A stretch of DNA of 14,324 nucleotides from Candidatus Rokuibacteriota bacterium (GTDB taxonomy: Bacteria; Methylomirabilota; Methylomirabilia; Rokubacteriales; CSP1-6): contig JACPCX010000148.1 in the NCBI GenBank assembly GCA_016184305.1, forward strand, positions 1 to 14,324. The letters are read 5' to 3'. The notes beneath the pieces are model-generated. The model did no database searches. It was given only the letters and a program-made list of their open reading frames with translations, and was not told where the DNA came from. The first letter of the stretch is position 1; each line of letters opens with the position of its first letter. The position numbers and the translations under genes are program-made. Positions 335 to 14,324 of the stretch are shown here, piece by piece.

Positions 335-1216
335 TCAAGTGCCGGTGTCGAAGGCGAAGCGCCAGGCGGCGCCGGCGCGGACGATGCGGCCGGCCGTTGG
401 GGTCGGGAAGTGGGCGGGCATGATCAGCGTGTCGGTCTCGGCGTGGCGCTCGAGGAAGGCACGGCGCGTTTGGGCCGCCTCGGCCGGAGCCGTGCAGAAG
501 CAGGTGCTCCAGTCGGGCTCGGCGCACTGCAGGGCGTGATGCATGAGGTCGCCGCTCATGACGGCCTGACGGCCGCCGGAGGCGAGGTGCAGGCACAGGT
601 GGCCGGGGGTGTGGCCGGGCGTGGGGGTCAGCGTGACGCCGTCCTCGATGGCGTGGTCGTCCTCCACCAGCACCGCCTGGCCCGCCTCGAGAATTGGCAG
701 GACGCTGTCCTGGTAGTGCGGCTCGACGGCCGCGCCGGGGCGCTGGAAGTGCTCCTGCCAGAACGCCAGTTCCCGGCGGCCGAACAGGTAGCGCGCCTTG
801 GGGAACGTGGGCACCCAGCGGCCGTCCCGCAGCCGGGTGTTCCAGCCCACGTGGTCCACGTGCAGGTGCGTGCACAGGACGACATCGATGTCCCCGGGTG
901 ATACGCCGGCCGCTGCGAGGCGCTCGAGGTAGGGCCAGTTCTTCATGTGGTAGCGCAGCTTCTGCGGGCGCGGCTTGTCGTTGCCCCCGCACGTATCCAC
1001 CAGGATGGTGTGGCGGGAGGTCCGCACCACGAAGCTGTGGAACGCCAGGACGAGCAGGCCTGTCCCCGGTTCCATCAGCACGGGCTCCAGCCAGTGGCGA
1101 TGGGCCTCGATGGCCGCCGGCGTGGACGCCGGGAACAGCGCGGCCGGCGGGAATACCGGCTCCTGGAATTCCACCACGCGATCCACCGTGAATTCGCCGA
1201 CCCTCCACCGTTCCAT
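335..1216 (-). CDS. Metallo-beta-lactamase-fold metallo-hydrolase (AHL-lactonase/methyl-parathion-hydrolase-like group)
   Basis: Motifs ILVDTCGGN, THLHVDHVGWN (HxHxDH), PTFPKARY, TPGHTPGH, SGDLMHH and MPAHF. Start moved to ATG 1216 (MERWRVGEF), which is preceded by SD GAAGGGGAG. The ORF-track extension to 1753 runs through non-coding-looking DNA. Confidence 0.92.
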   Translation of the reverse strand: MERWRVGEFTVDRVVEFQEPVFPPAALFPASTPAAIEAHRHWLEPVLMEPGTGLLVLAFHSFVVRTSRHTILVDTCGGNDKPRPQKLRYHMKNWPYLERLAAAGVSPGDIDVVLCTHLHVDHVGWNTRLRDGRWVPTFPKARYLFGRRELAFWQEHFQRPGAAVEPHYQDSVLPILEAGQAVLVEDDHAIEDGVTLTPTPGHTPGHLCLHLASGGRQAVMSGDLMHHALQCAEPDWSTCFCTAPAEAAQTRRAFLERHAETDTLIMPAHFPTPTAGRIVRAGAAWRFAFDTGT

Positions 1217-1259
1217 GTCGTCATGCTCCCCTTCAAGAGAATGTCCCTGGCGACGAGAC

Positions 1260-1299
1260 GGCCGGGGATAACCCCGCCAGAGACGGGTAAACCCCGGCC
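1260..1299. repeat. Imperfect inverted repeat upstream of the MBL hydrolase gene
   Basis: ggccggggataaccc ... gggtaaaccccggcc: 15-nt arms with 2 mismatches around a 10-nt loop. Confidence 0.45.
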
Positions 1300-1424
1300 C
1301 CGATCCGCAGACGGCACAGATGGGATGTAGCCCACCGCCCCCCTTTCGCGTGCGGCGGGTCCCCACGAAATACACCGGAACCCATGTGGCCGTCAAAGGG
1401 AAAGGGCGGCGCGTCGGGCGTGTA

Positions 1425-1498
1425 ACGTCCTGGACCGAGAAGAGCGGGAACCGATCGAAGGGGGACCGGCTCGAATCGACACTCTCAGTCCAGGATGT
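1425..1498. repeat. Long imperfect inverted repeat (possible structured RNA or operator)
   Basis: acgtcctggaccgaga (1425-1440) pairs with tctcagtccaggatgt (1483-1498): 16 bp with one G-U pair and one mismatch. Confidence 0.45.
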
Positions 1499-1545
1499 CA
1501 ACGAGTGAAGAAGTAAAGCACGGGAGATTCTGGTATGGCCCTTGG

Positions 1546-1595
1546 GCGGCTTCCCAAGCTGGCCGTGGCCGTTTCGAATCCGGTCGGCCGCTCCA
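1546..1595 (+). pseudogene. Degenerate 3' half of tRNA-Gly(CCC), a tRNA remnant / att-like site
   Basis: Anticodon arm cggc-TTCCCAA-gctg (CCC at 1553-1555), T-loop TTCGAAT, acceptor 3' strand cggccgc, discriminator U and CCA (1593-1595), as in tRNA-Gly. There is no matching 5' acceptor strand or D-arm upstream, and G53 is replaced by T. Confidence 0.7.
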
Positions 1596-1603
1596 ACCAT
1601 CCC

Positions 1604-1633
1604 GGGGGTTACGGGCACGGACCCGTAGCCCCC
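1604..1633 (+). terminator. GC-rich hairpin directly after the tRNA remnant
   Basis: gggggttacggg-cacgga-cccgtagccccc: 12-bp stem with one G-U pair, followed by ttcgatt. Confidence 0.55.
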
Positions 1634-1787
1634 TTCGATTGCCTGATAGTTTCTTGACATCGCCTTCTCCTGTCGCGCGGCATGACGTCGCGGCTCCGGT
1701 GTGTCGCGTCGGCCCGCCCCCCGCCAGGGCGGCGATTTCCCTGGGCGCGACAATGCGGTACTCTGCGGTCACCCGAAGGAGGGACCC

Positions 1788-2405
1788 ATGATCTACGAGA
1801 TCCGGACGTACCAGCTGAAGCCCGGCAGCCTCGCCGAGGTCGAGAAGCGCTTCGGCGCCGGCTACGAGTCCCGCAAGAAGTACTCACCGCTCGCCGCGTT
1901 CTGGCACACGGAGATCGGCCCGCTCAACGAGATCGTCCACGTGTGGCCGTACGCGGACATGGCCGAGCGCACCCGCGTGCGCGCCGAGGCGGCCAAGGAT
2001 CCCAACTGGCCGCCGAAGACCGCGGAGTTCATCGTCCACATGCAGTCGGAGGTGGTGGTGCCGTTCCCGTTCGTGCCTGCGCTCCAGCCCGGCACGATGG
2101 GCCCGATCTTCGAGATGCGCTACTACACCATCAAGGCCGGGACCCTGCCGGACCTCATCAAGCGCTGGGAGGGGGCGGTGCCCGCGCGCATCAAGCTCTC
2201 GCCGCTGGCCCTGGCCGGTCACGTGGAGTTCGGCGAGGCCAACCGCTACATCCACGTATGGGCCTACGAGAGCCTCGACCAGCGCGCGGCCATTCGGAAC
2301 AAGGCCCGGGAGATGGGGGTGTGGCCGCCGCCCGGCGGCGGGGATAGTCTCTTGACCCAGGCGAACAAGATCCTGCTGCCCTCCTCATTCTCGCCGCTCC
2401 AGTAG
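1788..2405 (+). CDS. Tandem (two-domain) NIPSNAP family protein
   Basis: Two NIPSNAP repeats: MIYEIRTYQLKPG...FWHTEIGPLNEIVHVWPYADMAER and IFEMRYYTIKAG...NRYIHVWAYESLDQRAAIR...LLPSSFSPLQ. SD AAGGAGG precedes ATG 1788. Confidence 0.93.
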   Translation: MIYEIRTYQLKPGSLAEVEKRFGAGYESRKKYSPLAAFWHTEIGPLNEIVHVWPYADMAERTRVRAEAAKDPNWPPKTAEFIVHMQSEVVVPFPFVPALQPGTMGPIFEMRYYTIKAGTLPDLIKRWEGAVPARIKLSPLALAGHVEFGEANRYIHVWAYESLDQRAAIRNKAREMGVWPPPGGGDSLLTQANKILLPSSFSPLQ

Positions 2406-2804: not shown

Positions 2805-5528
2805 ATGAGCAGGAGATCTCTGGTGTCAGTGGTGGGGTGCATCATCCTGGCCGGGCTCGCAGGCGCGATCCATGGCGCTGCGGCGGCGGAGCCCAGGATG
2901 GACGACGCGGTCAAGCTCTTCAAGGCGGAGAAGCTCGTCGAGGCCGAGAAGGCCCTGGGCGGCATCCTCGCGAAGTCGCCGGACGCGATGGATGCCCGTC
3001 TCCTCATGGGGTGGAGCCTCTGGGGCCAGGGGCGCTACGACGAGGCGCTGGTCCGCTTCAAGAGCGTGCTGCGCGAGGCCCCGGCCCAGCGCCGCCCGAC
3101 GACGGACGAGATAATCACCTTCAACATCGCCTCCGATGTCACCGCCATCAACAACCCCGACCTGGCCTCGGCCCGGAAGGGGCTCGGCTGGACCTACTTC
3201 AAGAAGGGGTGGATCCGGCTCGCGGGCGCGCAGTTCACCTCCCTCAACAAGCTCTCGTCCAACTGGGACGAGCCGTACCTCGGGCTCGGGTTCGTCTATC
3301 TCGCCCACGGAAAGTTCAACGAGTCCGAGGCCGCGTTCCGCGAGTACCTGGCCAAGACCCCGTCGGGGACGAACAAGCCCCACGAGGGCGCGCGCGGCCT
3401 GGGTGATCTGTTCGTCGCCAAGGGCGATCCCGCGAAGGCGATTCCGCACCTGGTGACGGCGCTCAAGGGAAAGCCCGGGTGGCTGGAGGTGCAGTCGCTC
3501 CTGGCGTGGAGCTATCTCCAGACGGGTGACTCCGCCAAGGCCGCGGAGATCTTCAGTCAGCTCAAGACGGCGCGCCCGGCCGAGGCCGAGGCGGGTCTGG
3601 CGTGGGTGGCCCTCAAGCGGGACCGGCTTGACGAGGCCGAAGCGGGATTCGGCCGCGCGCTGGTCGCCCTCCCGGGCTACGGCCGGGCGCTCGAAGGGAT
3701 ACGCGAGCTCCGCGGCAAGCGCTACAAGGCCTTCGACGAGGCCTGGGCGCTCTATTACGGAGGCAAGAATTCCGAGGCCGTGGCGGCATTCGAGCGGCTG
3801 AGCAAGGAGCCGGGGCGGCTGCCCGATACCATGAAGCCCCTGGTGCTCAATGGGCTCGGCTGGTCCCGGCTCGGGCTCGGCGAGGCGGAAGAGGCCGAGA
3901 AGATCTTCCAGGAGTCGCTGCGCCAGCTTCCGAACGGCGCCGAGGCCACGGCCGGCCTCGGATTCATCGCATTGCGCCGCAAGGAGTGGGAGAAAGCCGA
4001 GACGGCCTTCGTCCAGGCCAACGGGACCATCCCCGGCCTGGCGGCGGCGAACAATGGCTTCGCCGCGCTCCGCGCCGCGCGCTTCGGCCCGCACGACCGG
4101 GCCTGGGAGCTCTTCTATCTCGGCAAGCCCGAGCAGGCCATCAAGGCCTTCGAGGCCCTCCTGGCCAGCCCGGGTGACTTGCCCGCCGCGACGCTTCCAT
4201 TCATCCGCGGCGGCATCGGCTGGTCCCAGCTCGCGCTTGGCAAGGTCGATAGCGCCGAGGAAACCTTCAAGCAGATCCGGCCCGCCTCGAAGATGGAGGA
4301 GGCCGAGGCGAAGGCCGGCATCGGCTGGATCGCGCTCCGGCGCAACCAGCCCGAGCAGGCCCAGAAGCTCTTCACGGAGGCGCTGACCGGCGCGCCCGGC
4401 TACGCCGCCGCCCTGCGAGGGTTCGCCGAGCTGAGGCGTGTGCGCGCGCCCGAGCTGGACGTGGCGTGGGCCGCGTACAACCAGGGCAAGTTCGGGGACG
4501 CAGCGCCCATGTTCAACAAGGTGATCGAGACCGCCGGGCTGCCGGCCGAATACGTGCGGGAGGCCCGGCGCGGGCAGGCCTGGAGCCTCTACTACGGGGG
4601 CACGCTCCAGAATGCCGCCGACGAGTTCGAGAAGCTAGTCAAGGCCGGCGAGGACGCCGATGTCCTGTACGGGCAGGGGCTGGCTCTGGCCGGCCTGGGC
4701 CAGCACGGAACCGCCGCTCCCGCGCTCGGGCGCGCCGCCGCGCTCGTCCCCGGCTCCCTCGACTACCAGGCCGCCCACGGCCGAGCGCTGCTCGCCAGCG
4801 GCGATGCCAAGGGGGCCCTCGCGGCCTTCACGGCGGCCTACCGGATCGCTCCGGCCTCCGCCGAGGTGAATCGGATGCTCGGCTGGACCTACGTGAAGCT
4901 CAACCGGCCGGCGGAGGCCAAGGCGGCCTTCCGCTACGCCCTGACCCTGATCCCGGGCTACTCGGACGACAAGCCCTTCCGGGAGCTGACAGGCAGCAAG
5001 GATTACCGCGATCTCAGGGGCGACCTGGCCTGGGGCTATGTCAGGTGGCAGGCCTTCGAGTCCGCGCGCAAGCTCTTCGAGGAGATCGCCAAGGACGACG
5101 CGGCCGACGGCAACGCGTGGTTCGGCCACGGCTACGCCCTCTACAAGCTCGGCAAGACCTCCGAGACCGAGGCGAGCCTCAACCGCGCGCTCAAGGCCAA
5201 GCGCCGGGCGGAGCACCGCACGGTGTGGGTCGTGTTCCCGGAGTCGGGCAGCTACCCGGTCCTGACCGACGTGCAGTCCATTCTCGGCTGGGTCTCGCTG
5301 GTGGCGGGCAAGTGCGAGCAGGCCGTCGAGCGCTTCGACGCCTCGCTGGACCGCGACCCCGACCTGGTCGCCTCGATGGTGGGCAAGGCCATCTGCCTCG
5401 CGAAGAAGGGCGAGCACACCGCCGCGCGGGAGATTTACCTGACGGCGCAGGAGGTGTATCCGGCCTATCCGCCGGTGCTGGCCGGGCTCCGCGCGACCGA
5501 GCCGAAGAAAACGGCCGAGATCCGCTGA
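2805..5528 (+). CDS. Large secreted/periplasmic tetratricopeptide-repeat protein (~907 aa)
   Basis: SD GGAGGAG before ATG 2805. Sec-type signal peptide MSRRSLVSVVGCIILAGLAGAIHGAAA. Many TPR-like units with recurring (G/L)LGW..Y and A...F..AL...P. Confidence 0.9.
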   Translation: MSRRSLVSVVGCIILAGLAGAIHGAAAAEPRMDDAVKLFKAEKLVEAEKALGGILAKSPDAMDARLLMGWSLWGQGRYDEALVRFKSVLREAPAQRRPTTDEIITFNIASDVTAINNPDLASARKGLGWTYFKKGWIRLAGAQFTSLNKLSSNWDEPYLGLGFVYLAHGKFNESEAAFREYLAKTPSGTNKPHEGARGLGDLFVAKGDPAKAIPHLVTALKGKPGWLEVQSLLAWSYLQTGDSAKAAEIFSQLKTARPAEAEAGLAWVALKRDRLDEAEAGFGRALVALPGYGRALEGIRELRGKRYKAFDEAWALYYGGKNSEAVAAFERLSKEPGRLPDTMKPLVLNGLGWSRLGLGEAEEAEKIFQESLRQLPNGAEATAGLGFIALRRKEWEKAETAFVQANGTIPGLAAANNGFAALRAARFGPHDRAWELFYLGKPEQAIKAFEALLASPGDLPAATLPFIRGGIGWSQLALGKVDSAEETFKQIRPASKMEEAEAKAGIGWIALRRNQPEQAQKLFTEALTGAPGYAAALRGFAELRRVRAPELDVAWAAYNQGKFGDAAPMFNKVIETAGLPAEYVREARRGQAWSLYYGGTLQNAADEFEKLVKAGEDADVLYGQGLALAGLGQHGTAAPALGRAAALVPGSLDYQAAHGRALLASGDAKGALAAFTAAYRIAPASAEVNRMLGWTYVKLNRPAEAKAAFRYALTLIPGYSDDKPFRELTGSKDYRDLRGDLAWGYVRWQAFESARKLFEEIAKDDAADGNAWFGHGYALYKLGKTSETEASLNRALKAKRRAEHRTVWVVFPESGSYPVLTDVQSILGWVSLVAGKCEQAVERFDASLDRDPDLVASMVGKAICLAKKGEHTAAREIYLTAQEVYPAYPPVLAGLRATEPKKTAEIR

Positions 5529-5746
5529 TGGACCCGCGCTTTCTCTTCAAGGAGGACTGCGGAGACGTGTTCACCCTGAATTCCATGGGCGCGCTCGTCC
5601 ACCGCCTCTACCGGGAAGGGGCGGCGCCGGAGGACATCGCTCAGCGGCTGGCGAGATCCCACGGGATCTCGCCAGCCCGGGCGCTCGGCGACGTGCTCGC
5701 CTTTCTCGCCCAGGTGAGGATCCATGGACTCCAGTCCGCATCGTAG
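5528..5746 (+). CDS. Stand-alone PqqD-family / RiPP recognition element (RRE) protein (72 aa)
   Basis: ATG overlaps the TPR stop (TGATG). MDPRFLFKEDCGDVFTLNSMGALVHRLYREGAAPEDIAQRLARSHGISPARALGDVLAFLAQVRIHGL fits the PqqD pattern G..FxLN..G..(I/V).....G....EI...L...Y.V....A..DV..FL..L...GL. It is the last 72 aa of ORF-track 4466..5746. Confidence 0.82.
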   Translation: MDPRFLFKEDCGDVFTLNSMGALVHRLYREGAAPEDIAQRLARSHGISPARALGDVLAFLAQVRIHGLQSAS

Positions 5747-6797
5747 CCTGACCGTCGCGATCACGGGGCTCGCGGCCTCGGACAACCCGGGGCCGGGGGT
5801 GGCTGTGGCGCGCTGCCTCAGGGAGTCGCCCGGGTTCAGGGGGAAGCTTGTCGGGCTCTCCTTCGACCATCGCTTCACCGGGCTGTATGCAACCGGTCTG
5901 TTCGACGAGGCCTTCCTCATCCCGGCTCCGTCCTACGGGGACCGGAGCTTCGTCCAGGCGCTGGCCGACATCAAGCGGCACACTGCCATCGACGTGCTGG
6001 TACCCGCGCTGGACCCCGATGTCGGGCTGTGCGCCGCGACACGCCGCTCGCTGGGGGCGCTCGGAATCCACACACTCGTGCCCGACGCGGCCGCCATCCG
6101 CCGCCGGGCCAAGTCGGTGCTCACGCCGCTGGCCGAGACCGTCGGGTTTTCCGCCCCGCGGACGCTTACGCTGTTCTCGCAAACCGCCATGACGGCCGCG
6201 CTCCGCGACCTCACGCTCCCGTTCTTCCTCAAGGGGTCCTTTGCCGACGCGAGGCTCGTGAGCACGGCGGAGCAGGCGCACGCGGAGTTCGAGCGGCTGG
6301 TCGGCCAATGGGGATTTCCTCTGCTGGCCCAGGAGCGGGTGCTCGGCGACGAGCTGAATCTGACCGTGCTCTTCAACCGCAAGAGCGAGCTGGTCGGAGC
6401 CGTGCCCATGCGGAAGCTGGGCGTCACGGACCGGGGCAAGGGCTGGGCCGGAGTCACGGTGCGGCTGCCGGACGTCGTGGAGCGCGCCGGCGCGCTGCTG
6501 CGGTCCATCGACTGGGTGGGCCCCGCCGAGCTGGAGATGATCCGCGATCCCGCCTCGAACCGGTTCTACCTCATCGAGATCAACCCCCGCTTCCCCGCGT
6601 GGACCTATCTCACGGCGGCGGCGGGACAGAATCTGCCGTGGGCGGCGGTGCAGCTCGCCATGGGACGAGAGGTCCGGCTCTTCCGCGAGGTCCGGCCGGG
6701 ACAGCTCTTCGTCCGGTCGGTCGAGGATGCCTTCATTCCCTTCGACCAGGTGGAGGCGCTGAGGTCCTCGCGTCATCTGGTCCTGCGGGGGATGTAA
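5724..6797 (+). CDS. ATP-grasp (carboxylate-amine ligase-like) protein with intact active site
   Basis: N-terminal VAITGLAASDNPGPG, then LPFFLKG, PLLAQERVLGDE, GPAELEM and FYLIEINPRFPAW (ExN metal/ATP motif). Confidence 0.88.
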   Translation: MDSSPHRSLTVAITGLAASDNPGPGVAVARCLRESPGFRGKLVGLSFDHRFTGLYATGLFDEAFLIPAPSYGDRSFVQALADIKRHTAIDVLVPALDPDVGLCAATRRSLGALGIHTLVPDAAAIRRRAKSVLTPLAETVGFSAPRTLTLFSQTAMTAALRDLTLPFFLKGSFADARLVSTAEQAHAEFERLVGQWGFPLLAQERVLGDELNLTVLFNRKSELVGAVPMRKLGVTDRGKGWAGVTVRLPDVVERAGALLRSIDWVGPAELEMIRDPASNRFYLIEINPRFPAWTYLTAAAGQNLPWAAVQLAMGREVRLFREVRPGQLFVRSVEDAFIPFDQVEALRSSRHLVLRGM

Positions 6798-6801
6798 GGG
6801 C

Positions 6802-7911
6802 ATGAGCGCGAAGCCGACATGGGTGGGGATCACGGGCATCACCTCGGCGGACGAGCCGAGCGCCGGGCTGGCCGCGGCGCAATCGCTCAAACGGGGGCCC
6901 GGCGCCGCGGGCTTCCGCGTCGTGGCGCTCGCGGAGAGCGCCTTCTCGGACGGAATCCAGGCCGTGCCCGCGGCCGACGAGGTGGTCGTGGTGCCCTCGC
7001 CCCAGCACGAGCCGGAGGCCTTCGTCGCGGCGGTCCGCGAGCTGGCTCGCGGCCGGCGCTTCGTCCTGCTGGCGGGCTCGCCGGCGGACGTTGTGGCGCT
7101 GGCGCCTCGCCGCGACGCCCTCTCCCAGGCGGGCGTCCGCCACATGCTCCCGTCGCCCCGTCAGGTCTCGACTCTGCCGTTTCTCGGGGTGGCGAGGGTC
7201 GCCGGGTTGCGAATCCCACGCGGCACCGGGCTCGATCCCGCGAGCGTCGGAAGGCTAGCGCTCCGGCCGCAGTCCTGGCCCCTGGTGCTGCGGACCACAG
7301 ACGGGCGCCTGGCCTCGGCCGCCACGCCCGCCGAGATCCCGGCGCTGGCCCAGGCGCTGGCTCGCCCCTGGGGCATGGTGACACGCGCCCACGAGCCGGT
7401 GCTGGGGTCGGAGATCAGCGTCGCCGTCCTGTGCGGCGGCCACGGGCGACCGCTGGGGATGGCCGCGGCGATACCGCTCCAGCGCGGCGGCAACGGGGCT
7501 GTCTGGTCCGCCGTGACGACCGCCGATCCAGGGGTCCTGGCTGCCACGCGGCGCATCCTCGATGTCGCGCGCTGGACCGGCCCCGGCGAGCTTCACCTGA
7601 TCCGCGACGAGGGGGGCGCGCTCTGGTTCACGGGCGTGACGCCGGGCTTCCCCTCCTGGATCTCGCTGGCCGCCGCGGCCGGCCGGCCGCTGGTCCACCA
7701 GTACCTGGGCCTCTGCCTCGGGGCGGCGCCGCTTCTCCCCGGGGCGTACCGGGACGGCCTGTTCATGTCCCGGGTGGCCATGGACATCGCGATGCCGATC
7801 ACCACGCTTGGCCGACTGGCCACCGAAGGAGCCTTCTCCCATGACACACACCACGCAGGAACGCTACGAGCGGCCCCTGATCATGCGGCGCGAGCTCGGG
7901 TCGCTCACTAA
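6802..7911 (+). CDS. Degenerate ATP-grasp paralog, probably catalytically inactive
   Basis: Colinear with the preceding gene: VGITGITSADEPSAG vs VAITGLAASDNPGPG, WTGPGELHLIRD vs WVGPAELEMIRD, and FTGVTPGFPSW vs LIEINPRFPAW. Confidence 0.8.
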   Translation: MSAKPTWVGITGITSADEPSAGLAAAQSLKRGPGAAGFRVVALAESAFSDGIQAVPAADEVVVVPSPQHEPEAFVAAVRELARGRRFVLLAGSPADVVALAPRRDALSQAGVRHMLPSPRQVSTLPFLGVARVAGLRIPRGTGLDPASVGRLALRPQSWPLVLRTTDGRLASAATPAEIPALAQALARPWGMVTRAHEPVLGSEISVAVLCGGHGRPLGMAAAIPLQRGGNGAVWSAVTTADPGVLAATRRILDVARWTGPGELHLIRDEGGALWFTGVTPGFPSWISLAAAAGRPLVHQYLGLCLGAAPLLPGAYRDGLFMSRVAMDIAMPITTLGRLATEGAFSHDTHHAGTLRAAPDHAARARVAH

Positions 7912-9277
7912 GCAGTGGGGCGGCGGGGGTCCCGGCGCCCCCCCCATCGCCGTCGGTGAAGCGGTGGACGGCGTCAGCGCCCAGAGTCTGAAGACCAAGT
8001 ACGGCTCTCCGCTCTACGTCGTGTCCGAGGCCACGCTGCGGAAGAATCTCCGCGGGTTCCTCTCGGCCTTCCGCTCCCGCTATCCCGAGACGGTGTTGGC
8101 GTACTCGTACAAGACGAATTACGTGTCCGGGATCTGCGCCACCCTCCACCAGGAAGGGGCGTGGGCCGAGGTGGTGTCCGGGTTCGAGCTGGAGCGCGCC
8201 CGCGCGCTGGGCATGCCCGGGTCCCAGATCGTCTACAACGGCCCGTACAAGCCCTTCGATCACCTCCTCGAGGCGGCGCGTCTCGGCGTCCGGATCAACG
8301 TGGACAACCTCGAGGAGCTGGCCGACCTCGAGGAGGTGTCGCGGCAGCTCAAGCGCCCGGTCAAGATCGGGATCCGGGTGAACATGCGTCTCAACGATCC
8401 GCCGTGGGACAAGTTCGGCTTCAACATCGAGTCGGGCCAGGCGCTGGAGGTGTGCCGGAGGATTCACGGCTCGAAGCTCCTCCGGCTCGCGGGCCTGCAC
8501 CTCCACGCCGGCACCTATCTCGCCAACGTGGAGATCTACAAGCGCGCCATCACCGGGCTCCTGGAGCTGGCCATGACCGTCGAGGCGCAGCGCCTGGGCG
8601 ACATCGAGTACGTGGATCTCGGCGGCGGATACGCCTCGCGGAACACCATCCTCAGCCAGCTCCTGCCCGGCGAGATGACGGCGCCGAGCTACGCCGAGTA
8701 CGCCGAGGCCATCTCTGCCCCCCTCAAGGCCTGCGTCAAGCGGCTGCCCCGCCGCCCGCTGCTGATCCTGGAGCCGGGTCGCGCCATCGTGGACGATGCC
8801 GTCACCCTCCTGGTGAGCGTCGTGGCAGTGAAGAAAACCCCCGACGGGCGGACCCTGGTCGTGGTGGATGGCGGCGTGAATCTCCTGCCCACCGCCTACT
8901 ACTTCAGGCACGACGTGGTCGCCGGGCGCGAGGTGGACGGAGACTCCGCGCGCGTGGACATCGTCGGACCCCTCTGCATGCAGATCGACGTGCTGCGGCG
9001 GGACGTGTCGCTGCCCCCGGTCAGCCGGGGCAGCATCCTCCTCTTCCGTAACGCCGGCGCCTACACGGTCTCCAACTCGATGCAGTTCATCTACCCGCGG
9101 CCTCCCGTCGTCGTCGTCTCCGGGCGGCAGACGCATGTGCTCCGGCGAGGCGAGCGGACGGAGGACCTGGTGCGCCTGGACGAGATGCCTGCCCATCTCG
9201 CGCCACGGTCCGCGGCGTCGAGCCGGAATGGCCACAAGACGGCCCGCGCGAACGGCAACGGGCGAGGTCACAGCTGA
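7841..9277 (+). CDS. Fold-type III PLP-dependent decarboxylase (diaminopimelate/ornithine decarboxylase family), substrate unknown
   Basis: YGSPLYV, AYSYKTN (PLP lysine codon at 8111), EVVSGFE, YNGPYK, KFG, HLHAGT, DLGGG, EPGRAIV, VDGG, GPLCMQID and AGAY. SD AAGGAG at 7826-7831 precedes ATG 7841. Confidence 0.9.
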   Translation: MTHTTQERYERPLIMRRELGSLTKQWGGGGPGAPPIAVGEAVDGVSAQSLKTKYGSPLYVVSEATLRKNLRGFLSAFRSRYPETVLAYSYKTNYVSGICATLHQEGAWAEVVSGFELERARALGMPGSQIVYNGPYKPFDHLLEAARLGVRINVDNLEELADLEEVSRQLKRPVKIGIRVNMRLNDPPWDKFGFNIESGQALEVCRRIHGSKLLRLAGLHLHAGTYLANVEIYKRAITGLLELAMTVEAQRLGDIEYVDLGGGYASRNTILSQLLPGEMTAPSYAEYAEAISAPLKACVKRLPRRPLLILEPGRAIVDDAVTLLVSVVAVKKTPDGRTLVVVDGGVNLLPTAYYFRHDVVAGREVDGDSARVDIVGPLCMQIDVLRRDVSLPPVSRGSILLFRNAGAYTVSNSMQFIYPRPPVVVVSGRQTHVLRRGERTEDLVRLDEMPAHLAPRSAASSRNGHKTARANGNGRGHS

Positions 9278-11472
9278 ACTTCTGGCGCGCGGTGCTCAGC
9301 GGGGCCGGCCAGGTCCTCTGTGCCGCGTCCCCGAAGGCGGGGGCGTGGTTCCTCCTGGCCTTCGCCCTCTTCTCGCCCGAGGCGGCGCTCGGGGCCGTCC
9401 TGGGCCTGGTGGTCGCCACGGGGATGGCTCGCGGGCTCGGCTGGAACGAGTTGCTGCTCGGCCAGGGGCTGTTCGGCTACAACGCCGCCATGCTGGGGCT
9501 CGCCTGGACGGCGTTCTTCCCGCTGCCATCACCGGGCTTCCTCCTCGTGCTGCCGGCGGCCGCCGTCACGACCTGGCTCCACGGCCGCCTGCTGCCCCCC
9601 TTCGGCCGCCGGGAGCTGCCGGTGCTCGGCCTCCCGTTCGTCCTGGTGGTCTGGGGTGCCGGTCTCCTCTGTGTGGCGCTCGGTGTCGGGCAATTGTCTC
9701 CGATCATCCCTCCCGCGATTGCGGGTCCGGGGGCGGGCTGGACGACTCCGGCCCTCAGGGCCGCCGCCGCCTCGTTTGCTGTCACCTCGCTGCCGGGAGC
9801 GGCGGCTGCCGCCATCGGGCTCTGGTGCGTGTCGCGGGTGGCTCTCGGCGTTGCGCTCGCGGGCCTCACCCTCGGGCTCGGGACTGCCATGCTCCTGGGG
9901 GGCGTCGAGGGGGTGCTCTGGATGGGCGGCTACGCGTACACGGCGCTGCCCGTGGCGGTGGGGACGGCCGGCGTGTTCTTCCCGCTGAACGCGCGGATGC
10001 TCGCCCTCGCGGCCGCGCTGTCGGTGGTGGGCGTGGTGGGATGGGTGGGCCTCGTCTGGGCCCTGGCGCCCATCGGACTCTTCGCCGTCACCGCGGTCGC
10101 CCACGCCCTGGTGCTGGGCCTGCTCATCGCGGCGAAGAGCCGCGCGCTCTCGGCTGCCCTGGGGATCCGCCCGCGACCCCTCTCCGAGGCGGCCCTGCCC
10201 GGAGGGCTCGCGGAGGTCGTGGCGACAGGGCCGTTGCCCGAGGCCGAGATCAGCGAGCTCGTACGGCTGATCCGCCGGTCCTCGAGCATCGTCGTGCTCT
10301 CGGGGGCGGGCATGAGCACCGAGTCCGGCATTCCGGACTACCGGAGCCAGACCGGGTTCTGGTACGACGCCAATGCCGAGGCCCTGACCTACTCTCGCTT
10401 CCTGGAGTCGGGATTTTCCCGGCGCCTTCACTGGCGGCTCCATCGGCGATTCAGCCGCGCGCTCGGCCGGGCGCGGCCGAACGCCGGCCACCGCCTGCTC
10501 GTCGATCTCGAGCGCGAGGGGAAGCTCCTCGGGGTCATCACGCAGAACGTGGACGGCCTGCACCAGGCGGCGGGCCTTCCGGAGGCGCGCGTGGTCGAGC
10601 TGCACGGCAACGTCACCGAGGCGGTGTGTCTCCGTTGCGAGGAGCGGCTGCCGTCAAAGTCCGTCCGGCCGCGAGGATGGTGGAAGCCGCCCGCGTGCCC
10701 CGGCTGTGGCGGACCCCTCAAGGTCGACTCGGTGAGCTTCGGGGAGGATCTCGACCCGAGCCGGCTGGCGCTGGCGGCCTGGTGGTCTCGAAGCGCCGAC
10801 CTGATGCTCATCCTCGGGACCTCCCTGCAGGTGGCGCCGGCGTCGAACCTCCCGGAGATGGCCCGGGAGCGAGGCATGCCCCTCGCGATCGTCAACCGGA
10901 CTGAAACCCGACTCGACCCCTGGGCGGCCCTCGTGGTGCGAGGCCCCGCGGCCCGGGTGCTCGAGGAGGTGAGGAGGCGCCTCATGACTGCTCCCGTCCC
11001 GCGACTGATCCGCCCCATGACCCGGCTCGACTTCCTCCACCTGTGCAGGGTCGTGGACTCCTGGTGGAACGATCAGGTCCGCTACCTGCTCCATCCCCTC
11101 TACCTCGAGCACTTCCCGCAAACCTGCTTCGTCTGCGAGGAGGCGGGGGACGTGGCCGGCTTCCTGGTCGGGTTCATCTCCCAGGGGCGCCCCGAGGAAG
11201 CGTACGTGCACCTCGTGGGCACCGCCCCGGCCTCCCGGGGCCAGGGGATAGGGCGGGCGCTGTACGAGCACTTCTTCGAGGTGGTGCGCAGCCGCGGATG
11301 CGTCAAGGTGCTGGCCATCACCGTGCCCCACAACGAGGGGTCGCTGGCCTTCCACCGCCAGATGGGCTTTCGGTTCCGGGAAGAGGGCGGAGCATGGGCC
11401 GGGACGGTGCCCCTGGTCCCCGACTACGCCGGCCCTGGCGTTCACTGCGTGCTCATGGAGCGGAAGCTGTAG
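9274..11472 (+). CDS. Fusion protein: urea-transporter-like membrane domain + Sir2/sirtuin NAD-dependent deacylase + YqjY-like GNAT acetyltransferase
   Basis: UT-like part: [30 protein letters not shown] and many hydrophobic helices (to ~10140). Sirtuin: [43 protein letters not shown]...CPGC, GTSLQV, IVN. GNAT: DSWW...[10 protein letters not shown]...[20 protein letters not shown]...[10 protein letters not shown]...[13 protein letters not shown]...DYAGPG. Start is either CTG 9274 (proposed) or GTG 9292. Confidence 0.85.
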
Positions 11473-11539
11473 CGAGGGAATCGCGGCCGCCGAGGAAGTT
11501 GCCAATCCGGCCGGACTCGGGCTAAGTTTGACATGCCCT

Positions 11540-12880
11540 ATGGACCGACCGCGAGTTCTCGTTGTGGACGACGAGAAGATGATCCGCGAGATGCTCGCGG
11601 AGGCTCTCGCCTCGTGGGGGTACGAGGCCTCCACCGTGGGCAGTGCCGAGGAGGCGCTGGAGGCCCTGGCCCGGAGCCTGGTTGACGTGGTGCTCCTCGA
11701 CATCATGATGCCGGGCATGAGCGGCATCGACCTGCTCCGCGAGATCAAGCACCGGGACCTGGACGTCGACGTCCTGATGATGACCGGCCGCCCCACGGTG
11801 GAGACGGCCGTCCAGGCCTTGAAGGCGGGCGCCTGCGACTACCTCGAGAAGCCCCTGAATCTGGACGTGCTCCGCCACCTCATGGGCGGAGTGATCGAGC
11901 GGCGACTCCTCCGGCAGGAAGTGCATGCCCTACGCGCCCGCGTGGGGGACCAGCTCGGCGCCATGGAGCTGGTCGGGGTGTCGGACGCCATGCAGCGGCT
12001 CCGGGACCTCATCGACCGGGTGGCGAGCAGCGACTCCCCGGTCCTGATCGAGGGCGAGAGCGGCACGGGCAAGGAACTGGTGGCGGGGGCCATCCACCAC
12101 CGGTCGCCTCGCGGCCGCGCCCCGTTCATCCCGGTCAACTGCGGCGCCATTCCCGCGGATCTTATGGAGTCCGAGTTCTTCGGCCACGCGCGCGGCGCCT
12201 TCTCGGGTGCGGTGGCCGATGCCCTTGGCCTGATCCGCTCCGCCCACGGCGGCACGATCTTCCTCGACGAGATCGCCGAGCTCCCAGCGGCGCTGCAGGT
12301 CAAGCTCCTCCGCGTGCTCCAGGACACGGAGGTGCGTCCCGTCGGCTCCGTCAAGACCTTCAAGGTGGATGTGCGCGTGATCGCCGCCACCAATCAGAAC
12401 GTGGAGCAGGCCGTACGGGCCGGCACCTTCCGCCAGGATCTCTTCTATCGCCTCAACGTGGTGAGCATCCTGGTCCCGCCCCTGCGGGAGCGTCGGGCGG
12501 ACATCCCGCCCCTGGTGACCCACTTCCTCCGCCAGCTCAACCAGAAGCTCGGCCGGCGGGTGAGCGGGGTCGGGCCGGCCGCGATGGCGGCGCTCATGGG
12601 TTACGACTTTCCCGGCAACGTGAGGGAGCTGGAGAACCTCCTCCATCGCGCGTACGCTCTGGGCGCCAGGGAGGAGATCACGCTCGAGGATTTGCCGGTA
12701 CTGCAGTCCCGCCCCGAGGAGCCCGAGCCGGCCGGGGGGCTGCCAACCCTCGCGGCGGCCGAGCGAGAGCTCATTCTCCGGGTCCTTCGCCACCACGGTG
12801 GCGACAAGGACCAGGCAGCCCGGGCGCTCGGGATCTCCCGGCGCACCCTCTACCGCCGGATCGAGGAATACGGCGCCTAG
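11540..12880 (+). CDS. NtrC/AtoC-family sigma54-dependent response regulator (REC-AAA+-Fis HTH)
   Basis: [15 protein letters not shown] (phospho-Asp), [11 protein letters not shown] (Walker A), ESEFFGH..GAFSGA, IFLDEI (Walker B), [21 protein letters not shown] and [16 protein letters not shown]. Start is ATG 11540 or TTG 11528. Confidence 0.95.
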
Positions 12881-13250: not shown

Positions 13251-13266
13251 TGGCAAGAGACCTGCA
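13251..13266 (+). promoter_or_regulatory. Sigma54 (-24/-12) promoter of the receiver/kinase genes
   Basis: TGGCAAGAGACCTGCA with GG-N10-GC spacing. Predicted +1 is near 13277. Confidence 0.7.
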
Positions 13267-13281
13267 AATACCGTTCTCCGT

Positions 13282-13695
13282 ATGATCGGGCGCTCAGCGC
13301 TGGCAAGAGGCCGTCTTCACTGGGTCCTGGTGGTCGACCAGGACGAATCCGTAGCCGGCTCCCTGGCCAGGCGCTTCCAGGAGCGGGGCCTCACGGCCCA
13401 CGCCACCGCCTCCGGCAAGGAGGCATTGCGGCTGGCGAGCCTCAGGAAGCCGACCCTGGCCATCATCGACCTGATGCTCGGCGACATGGGAGGCGTGGAG
13501 CTGGCCCAGCGTCTCAGGGAGCTCGACCCGGAGCTGGCCATGGTCGTGACGACGAGCGATCGGCGCCCGGCCCTCGAGGTCGAGGCCCGGAGGGTGGGAA
13601 TCGTTCACTACGCCCACAAGCCCCTCGACCTCGACCGGCTCGACGCCGTCATGACGAGGGCCATCCACACCCTCGAGCGAGGAGATCACAGATGA
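13282..13695 (+). CDS. Single-domain response regulator (CheY-like receiver)
   Basis: VLVVDQD, ASGKEAL, AIIDLMLGDMGG (phospho-Asp), VVTT and YAHKP. Confidence 0.88.
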   Translation: MIGRSALARGRLHWVLVVDQDESVAGSLARRFQERGLTAHATASGKEALRLASLRKPTLAIIDLMLGDMGGVELAQRLRELDPELAMVVTTSDRRPALEVEARRVGIVHYAHKPLDLDRLDAVMTRAIHTLERGDHR

Positions 13696-14324
13696 GCCAC
13701 GAACACGCCGGGTTGGCCATTCCGATTCGCCAGTCCCTCCTGGAGGCCCCGCTCCATGCCGGCATCGAGAGCGGGCGGGTGAGGGAGTGCGAGCAGGTGG
13801 AGGAGCGTCTGAGGGAGAGCGAGCAGAGGTACCGGAGGGCCTTCGCCGAGTCCCGCGACGCGATCGGCATCGTGGGGCCGGGGGGCGAGGTCCTCGAGAT
13901 CAACCAGGCCGGGCTCGATCTCTTCGGTTACGGCGCTGCCGAGGTGTCAGGGCTCCGCGTCCAGCAGCTCTACGCCGATCCCGCGGACCGGGCGAGGTTC
14001 CTCGATGAGACGGGGCGCAACGGGTCCGTCAGGGACTTCGAGGTGAGGTTCCGCAGGAAGGACGGAGCCCTCATTGACTGCCTGCTGTCGGCCGCCTTGT
14101 GGCGGGACGAGGCCGACAGCCTGCTGGGGTATCACGTCGTGATCCACGACGTCACCGAGCGCCGGCAGCTCGAGGCGCAGCTCCGCCAGTCGCAGAAGAT
14201 GGAGGCGATCGGGGCGCTGGCGGGCGGGATCGCCCACGACTTCGGCAATCTCCTCACCGTCATCATCGGCCGTGCCCAGCTCGTGCTGAGCCGCCTGCCG
14301 TCCGATGACCATCACCGCGCCGAC
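13692..14324 (+). CDS. PAS-domain sensor histidine kinase (CckA-like group), truncated by the window edge
   Basis: Not in the ORF track. ATG 13692 overlaps the receiver stop (ATGA), with SD GGAG. My translation: MSHEHAG...[21 protein letters not shown]...[12 protein letters not shown]...[10 protein letters not shown]...[43 protein letters not shown] (PAS/PAC plus H-box). Confidence 0.92.

Follow-up and report, generated by a model that had tools for sequence, protein, structure and literature searches.

We analyzed a stretch of 14,324 nucleotides from Candidatus Rokuibacteriota bacterium (assembly GCA_016184305.1, contig JACPCX010000148.1, forward strand), which we call the window; it is contig C99 of genome bin G000, which is 88.8% complete. 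One gene at 9274-11472 is predicted to encode an inner-membrane protein that combines a urea transporter (UT)-fold pore, a flexible tether of ~25 residues, a catalytically intact sirtuin (SIR2), a short linker, and an intact GNAT acetyltransferase. This fusion gene is the dedicated last component of a conserved cassette, and the operon probably makes a peptide- or amine-derived amide. We tentatively favor the possibility that the fusion protein serves as a membrane exit and tailoring station for this amide or amine product. The domains are individually known, while the architecture and the cassette are apparently undescribed within the literature searched.

Domain architecture of the fusion protein

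The fusion gene and its parts are located as follows.

9274..11472, + strand: fusion gene UT-SIR2-GNAT; start at CTG 9274 or GTG 9292, stop at 11470-11472
9295..10131, + strand: UT-fold membrane domain, residues 2-280 (Pfam UT, TIGR03441, alignment with the urea transporter dvUT)
10162..10239, + strand: low-confidence linker, about residues 291-316 (predicted local distance difference test, pLDDT; variable and gapped in the alignment)
10240..10989, + strand: sirtuin domain, residues 317-566 (Pfam SIR2, PDB matches, Foldseek, motifs)
11008..11460, + strand: YqjY-type GNAT domain, residues 573-723 (Acetyltransf_1, 1mk4, motif R649-G-Q-G652-I-G)

The initial annotation, made from the letters and open reading frames (ORFs) of the window, had described one uninterrupted frame carrying a UT-like membrane domain, a complete sirtuin, and a GNAT, and the open frame, the Pfam matches, and the PDB matches bear this out. 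In the ORF list of the window, a single frame without a stop codon spans 9274-11472. The ORF caller placed the start at GTG 9292, giving a product of 726 aa, and at 9274 there is a CTG codon, which shares nucleotides with the stop (TGA) of the decarboxylase gene upstream. In an alignment of 19 tripartite proteins (38-80% identity), the homologues keep the residues encoded 5' of 9292 (M-K-F-W), and the genome-level Pfam UT match starts at 9286, likewise 5' of GTG 9292. Because homology reaches upstream of 9292, a start at 9274 is defensible; the gene may begin at either codon, and we leave the choice between CTG 9274 and GTG 9292 open.

The Pfam UT model (PF03253) matched residues 2-280 (E = 3.4e-23; 82.7 bits against a cut-off of 25; profile positions 5-290 of 292), so that the gathering threshold of the family was passed across both repeats, and a PDB sequence search matched dvUT (3k3f) at 4e-12 across about 272 residues. 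Pfam SIR2 (PF02146) covered residues 338-516 (10303-10839; E = 1.6e-39), and the PDB sequence search matched Sir2Tm (1yc5; 9.6e-36, residues 320-549). Every motif that the initial annotation had named in the sirtuin and the GNAT was found. Those of the sirtuin, GAGMS (338-342), QNVD (418-421), ELHG with His438, Cys446/449/469/472, and GTS (509-511), are invariant in all 19 tripartite proteins, except N419 and S511, which are conserved in at least 90%. The FGE loop of the sirtuin is invariant or at least 90% conserved in the same set. The sirtuin falls below the NCBIfam cut-offs for the CobB equivalog or deacylase subfamily (NF001753, 226.5 against 243; NF040867, 210.7 against 320).

Pfam Acetyltransf_1 matched residues 595-693 (E = 1.4e-18). 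The GNAT follows the pattern of YqjY as had been claimed: 1mk4 was matched at 9.7e-31 over 151 residues (domain positions 7-157 against 4-154 of 157), and the listed motifs, WW, EHF, GFLxGFxSQ, AYxH, NxxSxxxH, and YxGPG, all align to it. The acetyl-CoA motif A reads R649-G-Q-G652-I-G, with R649 and G652 invariant in the 19 aligned proteins.

An AlphaFold2 model built on the 19-sequence alignment had a mean pLDDT of 86.1 and a predicted template modeling score (pTM) of 0.72. Block means of the linker pLDDT were 62, 35, and 72 over residues 291-320, with confidence low at residues 301-312, and the model suggests that this linker tethers the sirtuin to the membrane domain. The connection between SIR2 and GNAT is short and was confidently modeled. 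In a Foldseek comparison with the PDB, the modeled sirtuin superimposed on Sir2Tm and Af2 with target-normalized TM scores of 0.81-0.90 and a root mean square deviation of 2.0-3.0.

Integrity of the gene and distribution of the family

Contigs from independent data cross both domain junctions. Logan contigs from a non-source groundwater run (X3) and from a soil run of another study (X5) tile 9200-11600 and differ from the window by substitutions alone, with zero indels. The UT-SIR2 linker is crossed by X3 record 6 (9569-10252) and X5 record 15 (10223-10562), and the SIR2-GNAT junction by X3 record 8 (10539-11042) and X5 record 18 (10545-11600). A depth spike with short-sided joints at 10496-10576 corresponds to the conserved QNVDGLH region of sirtuins from other organisms. 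The junctions at ~10200 and ~10990, which the initial annotation had marked for checking, are thus crossed by independent contigs with neither stops, indels, nor chimeric joins, and there is therefore no misassembly. The chance that an assembly or gene-calling artefact fused three separate genes is negligible, and we dismiss it, because the frame is free of stops and the same architecture recurs in 22 database clusters, seven genomes, and independent runs.

The same locus occurs in Candidatus Rokubacteria bacterium GWA2_70_23, where the fusion protein is 95% identical, and all three domains are present in the 22 clusters, at 49-98% identity (NCBI, JGI, ENA, Logan). A contig scan with the single protein returned only a near-identical Rokubacteria contig and one unrelated sirtuin. 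One 155-nt contig from a sediment RNA-library run, single and of low depth, is identical to 9203-9357 across the boundary between the decarboxylase and fusion genes; we do not count it as evidence of expression, because DNA carry-over is possible.

We surveyed 251 genomes of the phylum (Methylomirabilota/Rokubacteria); the tallies include three unpublished genomes (G076, G218, G034), to which none of the loci described here belongs. Matches to the fusion protein at E ≤ 1e-10 were present in 198 of the 251, nearly all over the sirtuin part only, and the full-length tripartite match was found in seven (G000, G221, G223, G171, G215, G248, G196). Pfam UT scored above its cut-off in 15 genomes: the seven tripartite ones, of which G223 also has a UT-SIR2 locus; four more with UT-SIR2 (G144, G147, G224, G193); three with a stand-alone UT (G114, G118, G120); and G210, where the match is cut by the contig end.

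Among the best 150 matches from a cluster search of 1.84 billion representatives, classified and confirmed by Pfam, three clusters are tripartite (P0017, P0026, P0027) and 13 are full-length UT-SIR2 proteins (564-644 aa), with one more truncated. The source names are Rokubacteria/Methylomirabilia, Nitrospinota (the tripartite P0027), Planctomycetota, and Smithellaceae. With seven of 251 phylum genomes and three clusters among the best 150 matches, the architecture is not a common one. The architecture claimed by the initial annotation is therefore real, intact, and rare, with one correction: the tripartite protein represents only part of a wider UT-SIR2 family, whose members have the GNAT fused, have it separately, or show none. 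No longer fused form scored among 8000 candidates of 1272-3630 aa, which is weak evidence. The metagenome scan used a three-sequence UT alignment (A3) and sampled, outside the phylum, the Smithella-type branch alone; a 17-sequence alignment of distant UT proteins (A2) was dropped as a query because it was too divergent.

The initial annotation knew of no described protein with this architecture, and our searches agree. Database entries name these proteins only 'urea transporter' or 'NAD-dependent deacetylase'. In the literature searched, to which most subscription journals did not belong, we found no description of a UT-sirtuin fusion in bacteria, no paper on the combination of PF03253 with PF02146, and no paper on ATP-grasp, PqqD, and diaminopimelate (DAP) decarboxylase together. 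In term searches of three overviews, a 2021 review of bacterial sirtuins lacked the terms fused, fusion, membrane, and urea; a phylogenomic survey of graspetides lacked decarboxylase, Sir2, and urea; and a survey of RiPP (ribosomally synthesized peptide that is modified post-translationally) recognition elements (RREs) did not mention the cassette.

The fusion gene closes a conserved, probably biosynthetic cassette

The remaining cassette genes lie directly upstream of the fusion gene.

2805..5528, + strand: exported tetratricopeptide repeat (TPR) protein, first cassette gene (TPR_16, 1.4e-55)
5528..5746, + strand: PqqD-like (RRE-type) protein, ~72 aa (Pfam PqqD, 5.2e-08)
5724..6797, + strand: ATP-grasp ligase 1 (ATPgrasp_Ter, 5.5e-07; PDB 2pn1, 5.7e-10)
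6802..7911, + strand: ATP-grasp paralogue 2, degenerate (28-31% identity to ligase 1 over ~340 aa)
7808..9277, + strand: pyridoxal phosphate (PLP)-dependent decarboxylase of the ornithine/DAP/arginine decarboxylase fold (Orn_Arg_deC_N, 1.7e-31)

All are on the same strand and overlap or abut: the PqqD ATG overlaps the TPR stop codon by 1 nt (ATGA at 5528), ligase 1 overlaps the PqqD gene by 23 nt at 5724, and the decarboxylase stop and the CTG codon of the fusion gene overlap at 9274 (TGA/CTG). We compared the gene order by tblastn of the window proteins against fetched loci. The order TPR, PqqD, ATP-grasp ligase, ATP-grasp 2, PLP decarboxylase, and a terminal UT-SIR2(±GNAT) is complete in five tripartite loci including the window; the other two are cut by contig ends, and their remaining genes are present. 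The same order was found in two-domain UT-SIR2 loci of 30-36% identity (G144, G147, the second locus of G223, G224, and G193) and in three Smithella-type metagenome contigs of 48-55% GC, in which the fusion protein is 28-30% identical. In the Smithella-type locus, two further genes lie upstream of the TPR gene, one of the metallo-beta-lactamase (MBL) fold and one for a separate GNAT (Acetyltransf_3).

Strong ligase matches (E ≤ 1e-49) occurred in 12 of the 251 genomes, namely the 11 that hold the 12 UT-SIR2(-GNAT) loci, plus G210 with its UT match at the contig end. In independent assemblies, eight ligase homologues are on contigs equally long as those of tripartite or UT-SIR2 proteins (for example P0283 and P0032, both from Planctomycetes, 15284 nt), which suggests that they are co-located with these genes. 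In every locus examined, including variants without SIR2 or GNAT, a UT-like gene is coupled to an ATP-grasp ligase and a FslC/LysA-like decarboxylase.

Fusions between the parts point to the order of the chemistry. PqqD is fused to the N-terminus of the ligase in the database proteins P0222, P0227, and P0230 (475-479 aa), so the ligase would take a PqqD-bound (peptide) substrate. P0227 and the tripartite P0023 are on contigs of equal size (11006). The two ATP-grasps form a single ORF of 707-730 aa in loci L029-L031, and both halves of the L031 protein keep the E-x-N-P-R motif. In genus g8, a 751-aa ATP-grasp::PLP-decarboxylase is followed by a stand-alone UT of 366 aa (L036, 8849-11104 (-) and 7194-8294 (-); L037). 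Ligation and decarboxylation would therefore be consecutive steps, and the UT would belong to their chemistry even without the sirtuin. A gene of the major facilitator superfamily and an Opp/Dpp-type ATP-binding cassette (ABC) transporter lie near the g8 loci, where SIR2, PqqD, and TPR were not seen. In G224 (L034, 6975-8783 (-) and 8608-10551 (-)), a glutamine amidotransferase of the Asn-synthase type comes after the UT-SIR2 gene, and after it a half-UT::TPR fusion, from which the TPR protein would work at the UT domain.

The longest ORF of the TPR gene begins at TTG 2631; the likely start is ATG 2805, which is followed by a hydrophobic, signal-like segment. A hydrophobic N-terminal stretch is present in both the window and the L026 protein, and the gene is syntenic in the window, L023, L024, L026, L028, L029-L031, L038, L041, and L042. 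The PqqD-like protein scored 33 bits with the NCBIfam model lasso_PqqD_Strm, below its cut-off of 70, and has orthologues in L029 (3.7e-12) and L038 (6e-09). The Smithella-type PqqD proteins (L038, 6258-6665 (+); L042, about 3290-3670) carry an extra N-terminal stretch with a conserved C-x9-C-x10-C-x2-H, possibly a zinc site, which the PqqD proteins of Rokubacteria lack.

Ligase 1 retains an intact E-x-N-P-R-F-P Mg/ATP motif. In ATP-grasp 2, which had no Pfam, NCBIfam, or PDB match, G-V-T-P-G stands in place of E-x-N-P-R and Arg in place of the LKG lysine; its L038 counterpart has G-F-H-P-T at the first of these positions. Judging from these residues, ATP-grasp 2 is probably non-catalytic and looks like a pseudo-enzyme partner of the ligase. 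The closest structure to the decarboxylase is the N-citrylornithine decarboxylase FslC (7kh2; 3.6e-58), ahead of DAP decarboxylase (1twi; 3.3e-46); its NCBIfam scores were 251 bits for lysA (cut-off 298) and 208 for FslC (cut-off 500).

The UT domain and its selectivity filter

The selectivity filter of dvUT, as given in PMC4357013, comprises L84, T130, L247, and T294 (Sm), E187, V188, F190, and L293 (So), and Q24, V25, F80, and L129 (Si). We mapped these positions onto a phmmer pairwise alignment with dvUT and took conservation from the 19 sequences.

Si Q24: Q in the fusion protein (at least 90% conserved)
Si V25: V
Si F80: Y
Si L129: L (invariant)
Sm L84: M
Sm T130: G (13 G, 2 T, 2 A, and 2 S among 19)
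Sm L247: P (at least 90% conserved)
Sm T294: T (invariant)
So E187: A (gapped alignment stretch)
So V188: S (gapped alignment stretch)
So F190: A (gapped alignment stretch)
So L293: V (gapped alignment stretch)

The domain departs from the canonical urea filter: the Si site is kept, two of four Sm residues are changed non-conservatively, and the So site is replaced, an assignment that is less certain because the So block falls in a gapped, low-confidence part of the alignment. The model for the bacterial urea transporter Yut (TIGR03441) was also missed (62.5 bits against a cut-off of 274.6). The UT-like membrane domain of the initial annotation therefore stands, whereas its filter is not the canonical channel filter, with about half of the urea-selectivity residues missing. 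As the filter is half canonical, the domain is probably not a plain urea channel, and we read it as a UT-fold pore that may have altered selectivity. The termini of UTs are cytoplasmic, and UTs form trimers.

These data bear on the idea that the protein is an ordinary uptake channel for urea or short-chain amides with a fused nitrogen/energy sensor, which serves nitrogen assimilation rather than the upstream genes. Pfam UT scored above threshold, the inner (Si) residues are kept, an NtrC-type regulator adjoins the fusion gene, an acetamidase/formamidase lies directly downstream of the tripartite gene in G215, urease is present in G000, G221, G223, and G147, and databases name the protein a urea transporter. 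The missed TIGR03441 cut-off and the replaced So and Sm residues speak against such a channel. The urease alpha gene of G000 is on a different contig, and G215, a genome of 95% completeness with the tripartite gene, gave no match to urease alpha. The strict coupling to the ligase and decarboxylase across phyla would also be unexplained, and we regard an ordinary uptake channel as very unlikely.

Relationships of the sirtuin and the GNAT

In a FastTree phylogeny of 172 SIR2 domains, all 33 UT-fused domains fell inside one 53-row clade (support 84), together with eight SIR2-only proteins, one truncated fusion, and 11 others. The fusion labels were clustered on the tree well beyond shuffles (0 of 500 shuffles were as low). 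Strict monophyly of the UT-fused sirtuins was unsupported, the clade being mixed with stand-alone and other proteins. Two of the 11 others, P0047 and P0063, were scanned by Pfam and are jr-ZPR1-SIR2 proteins; these ZPR1 jelly-roll sirtuins lie within an 11-row clade beside the UT-fused sirtuins. The stand-alone sirtuins of the phylum occupy a different clade, and the fused sirtuin is therefore not a recent copy of the housekeeping gene. No second SIR2 gene was found in G000 at its given completeness; the sister genome G221 has a stand-alone sirtuin. SIR2-based anti-phage defense was considered and dropped, since all six cassette proteins matched 0 PADLOC families.

After YqjY, the next structures for the GNAT were the diaminobutyrate acetyltransferase EctA (1.4e-07) and N-terminal acetyltransferases. 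YqjY gives no functional lead, because no paper on the function of this acetyltransferase was found in the literature searched.

Proposed role in product tailoring and exit

The domains, motifs, operon linkage, and fusions of parts are observations; for the substrates, the direction of flux, and the bond cleaved by the sirtuin, we infer the following scheme. The PqqD-guided ligase would form an amide bond with a diamino-acid-type block (Lys, Orn, or DAP-like), either on a peptide or on a small acid, and the decarboxylase would strip the alpha-carboxylate of that block to give an amine. At the cytoplasmic mouth of the pore, the GNAT may acetylate the free amine and the sirtuin may remove an N-epsilon-acyl group, so that the two would jointly determine how the product or its carrier is charged and acylated. 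A small, largely neutral amide product or by-product might then pass the UT-like pore towards the periplasmic TPR partner, although passage in the inward direction is also conceivable.

A diamino acid is proposed because the decarboxylase, the GNAT, and the sirtuin all have relatives whose target in diamino acids is either the distal amine or the alpha-carboxylate; sirtuins act on N-epsilon-acyl-lysine. The closest structure to the decarboxylase, FslC, acts on an amide-conjugated diamino acid, and the GNAT recurs in different forms, as a fused YqjY-type domain here and as the separate Acetyltransf_3 protein in the Smithella-type locus. The half-canonical UT filter fits a changed cargo. Handling or export of an amine product had been one of the ideas of the initial annotation, and it is the one that the strict coupling of UT, ligase, and decarboxylase favors.

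Several points weigh against a tailoring and exit station. No convincing precursor peptide was found among 578 small ORFs from 14 loci compared all-against-all; the matches were alternative-frame or low-complexity only, and precursors may be short, divergent, or encoded elsewhere. Sirtuins are protein or peptide lysine deacylases, and none is known from such a biosynthetic operon. Peptides are too large for a UT-type pore, so that a PqqD-bound peptide and a conduit are compatible only if the cargo is a small moiety that is released, or a by-product. Several UT-SIR2 loci lack the GNAT, which is therefore not essential, and if both acted on the same group, a writer and an eraser on one chain could run a futile cycle. 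ATP-grasp homologues of ~40% identity fill 1375 clusters at E ≤ 1e-10, far above the count of UT-SIR2 proteins; outside the phylum, the ligase may therefore often lack a UT partner. A single origin of the UT-fused sirtuins also appears unsupported by the tree, with a clade support of only 84.

Alternatively, the GNAT and the sirtuin could be a regulatory switch, acetylating and deacetylating lysines of the pathway enzymes or of the channel itself. Acetyl-CoA and NAD+ levels would thereby govern the output of the pathway or the gating of the pore, as with Pat/CobB and AcuA/AcuC. Writer/eraser pairs of this kind, Pat-CobB and AcuA-AcuC, control acetyl-CoA synthetase. The intact writer and intact eraser on one chain fit such a switch, as do the conserved FGE-type loop and zinc module, which are typical of protein-lysine sirtuins, and the lack of another SIR2 gene in G000. 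Operon linkage would also place the regulator close to its targets. Yet SIR2 without a fused GNAT is the commoner form in the family (13 against three clusters among the best 150 matches), the fusion to a UT-fold domain is unexplained, and the UT stays coupled to the ligase and decarboxylase where SIR2 is absent. We consider the switch, which the initial annotation had proposed as gated by a solute, unlikely.

Self-protection is a decidedly doubtful explanation, in which the GNAT would inactivate a toxic amine or peptide in the cytoplasm, as a prodrug, and the tethered sirtuin would deacylate it at or before exit. The combination of a decarboxylase with a GNAT recalls MccE, whose C-terminal domain acetylates processed microcin C. 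GNATs of two subfamilies have been recruited to the cassette, and the model places the sirtuin in a tethered position at the membrane. This explanation is at odds with the loci from which the GNAT is missing, with the absence of conserved immunity or export ABC genes, and with the empty PADLOC result.

It is similarly improbable, in our view, that the sirtuin is itself biosynthetic. The PqqD-guided ligase would then build an N-epsilon-(aminoacyl) lysine on a scaffold peptide, the decarboxylase would trim it, and the sirtuin would cleave it with NAD+, freeing the product as an amide or O-acyl-ADP-ribose at the mouth of the remodeled UT pore, through which the product (or nicotinamide) would leave. 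If true, small molecules would here be built on a peptide scaffold and released by a sirtuin, in a new pathway kept in at least two phyla.

Neighboring genes

An NtrC-type gene begins 56 nt downstream of the fusion gene.

11528..12880, + strand: NtrC-type sigma-54 response regulator (Sigma54_activat, 2.3e-68; Response_reg; HTH_8)

The NtrC-type gene is also adjacent in L023, L024, and L028, is upstream and divergent in L029/L030, and was not seen beside the operon in L025-L027 and L031. With a position that is only partly conserved, its product is a possible regulator of the operon. The region 13282-14324 (+) encodes a stand-alone receiver-domain protein and, after it, a PAS-domain protein that is cut by the end of the window; these two and the NtrC-type gene suggest a signaling module beside the cassette. 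A sigma-54 promoter was rejected: the sites at 2648-2663 and 13251-13266 (+) have two mismatches each, against 4.0 such sites expected by chance. The first of these GG-N10-GC sites is 142 nt upstream of the likely TPR start, and the second is just before the response-regulator gene at 13282. Upstream of the cassette, the window encodes an MBL-fold lactonase-like protein with an N-terminal extension of ~230 aa without a family match (335-1753 (-)) and a tandem-NIPSNAP protein (1701-2405 (+)).

Other loci have neighbors of their own. In G215, an acetamidase/formamidase gene (FmdA_AmdA, 5e-88; L026, 5828-7087 (-)) lies directly 3' of the tripartite gene on the same strand and is followed by a HupE/UreJ-type protein, in this locus only. 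In the Smithella-type locus, genes for a flavin amine oxidase and an amidase run towards the UT-SIR2 gene and meet its end (L038, 12915-16151 (-)), and an FAD oxidoreductase (DAO) lies near the G224 locus.

Implications and comparison with known systems

Studies of sirtuins and GNATs have dealt almost wholly with soluble proteins that regulate protein acetylation. In the present case, an intact sirtuin on a channel-fold domain, tied to a ligase-decarboxylase operon, is kept across lineages that are distant and uncultured (Rokubacteria, Smithella-type, and probably also Planctomycetota and Nitrospinota). The arrangement points to an undescribed membrane job for a sirtuin, in which it would tailor, release, or gate a metabolite or peptide. 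The compact six-gene cassette defined here is suited to synthesis and expression. Proteins of these phyla that are automatically annotated as 'urea transporter' are unlikely to be plain urea channels, which affects metagenomic inference on the nitrogen cycle.

The cassette resembles FslC/rhizoferrin-type pathways, in which an amide-forming ligase is combined with an enzyme of the DAP-decarboxylase fold whose substrate is an amino acid in amide linkage. Further examples of the carboxylate-siderophore type are SbnH and, together with the ATP-grasp PvsA, PvsE. The cassette differs in that we saw neither an IucA/IucC synthetase nor a TonB receptor or siderophore exporter, and siderophore pathways have no counterpart of the PqqD, TPR, and UT-SIR2 proteins of the cassette.

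A likeness to RRE-dependent RiPP and graspetide systems lies in the PqqD-type RRE beside or fused to the ligase, the two ATP-grasps, and the GNAT. Microviridins are made with two ATP-grasps and the GNAT MdnD. No convincing precursor was found, and, unlike in graspetides, the ligase is of the carbamoyl-phosphate-synthetase (CPS)-like/ATPgrasp_Ter type: the curated graspetide ATP-grasp models gave no match, and only the CPS-like PRK12767 was hit (48-72 bits against 218-390). In term searches of the graspetide survey, the terms for a PLP decarboxylase or a UT-SIR2 membrane protein did not occur.

The synthesis of the osmolyte N-acetylglutaminylglutamine amide (NAGGN) uses Ngg, which joins a GNAT to an ATP-grasp, and the amidotransferase AsnO. 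The cassette shares with it enzyme classes that take charges off a small peptide: an ATP-grasp, a GNAT, and, in G224, the Asn-synthase-type amidotransferase. It differs in having no sequence match to the NAGGN families, and the decarboxylase, PqqD, TPR, UT, and SIR2 are absent from NAGGN synthesis.

Each domain of the fusion protein can also be compared with known relatives. YqjY (1MK4) aligns with the GNAT over 151 residues with all motifs and is, unlike it, a stand-alone protein of 157 aa. CobB and Sir2Tm share with the sirtuin the full catalytic core, the Cys4 zinc module, and the fold, as well as the pairing with a GNAT that is found in acetylation systems; unlike them, the fused sirtuin is below the equivalog/subfamily cut-offs and covalently joined to a membrane domain and a GNAT. 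The UT domain belongs to the same Pfam family as dvUT (3K3F) and Yut, has the same two-repeat all-helical fold, and keeps the Si residues and Sm T294. In contrast to dvUT and Yut, it carries two cytoplasmic enzymes and is encoded in a biosynthetic-looking operon, not beside urease.

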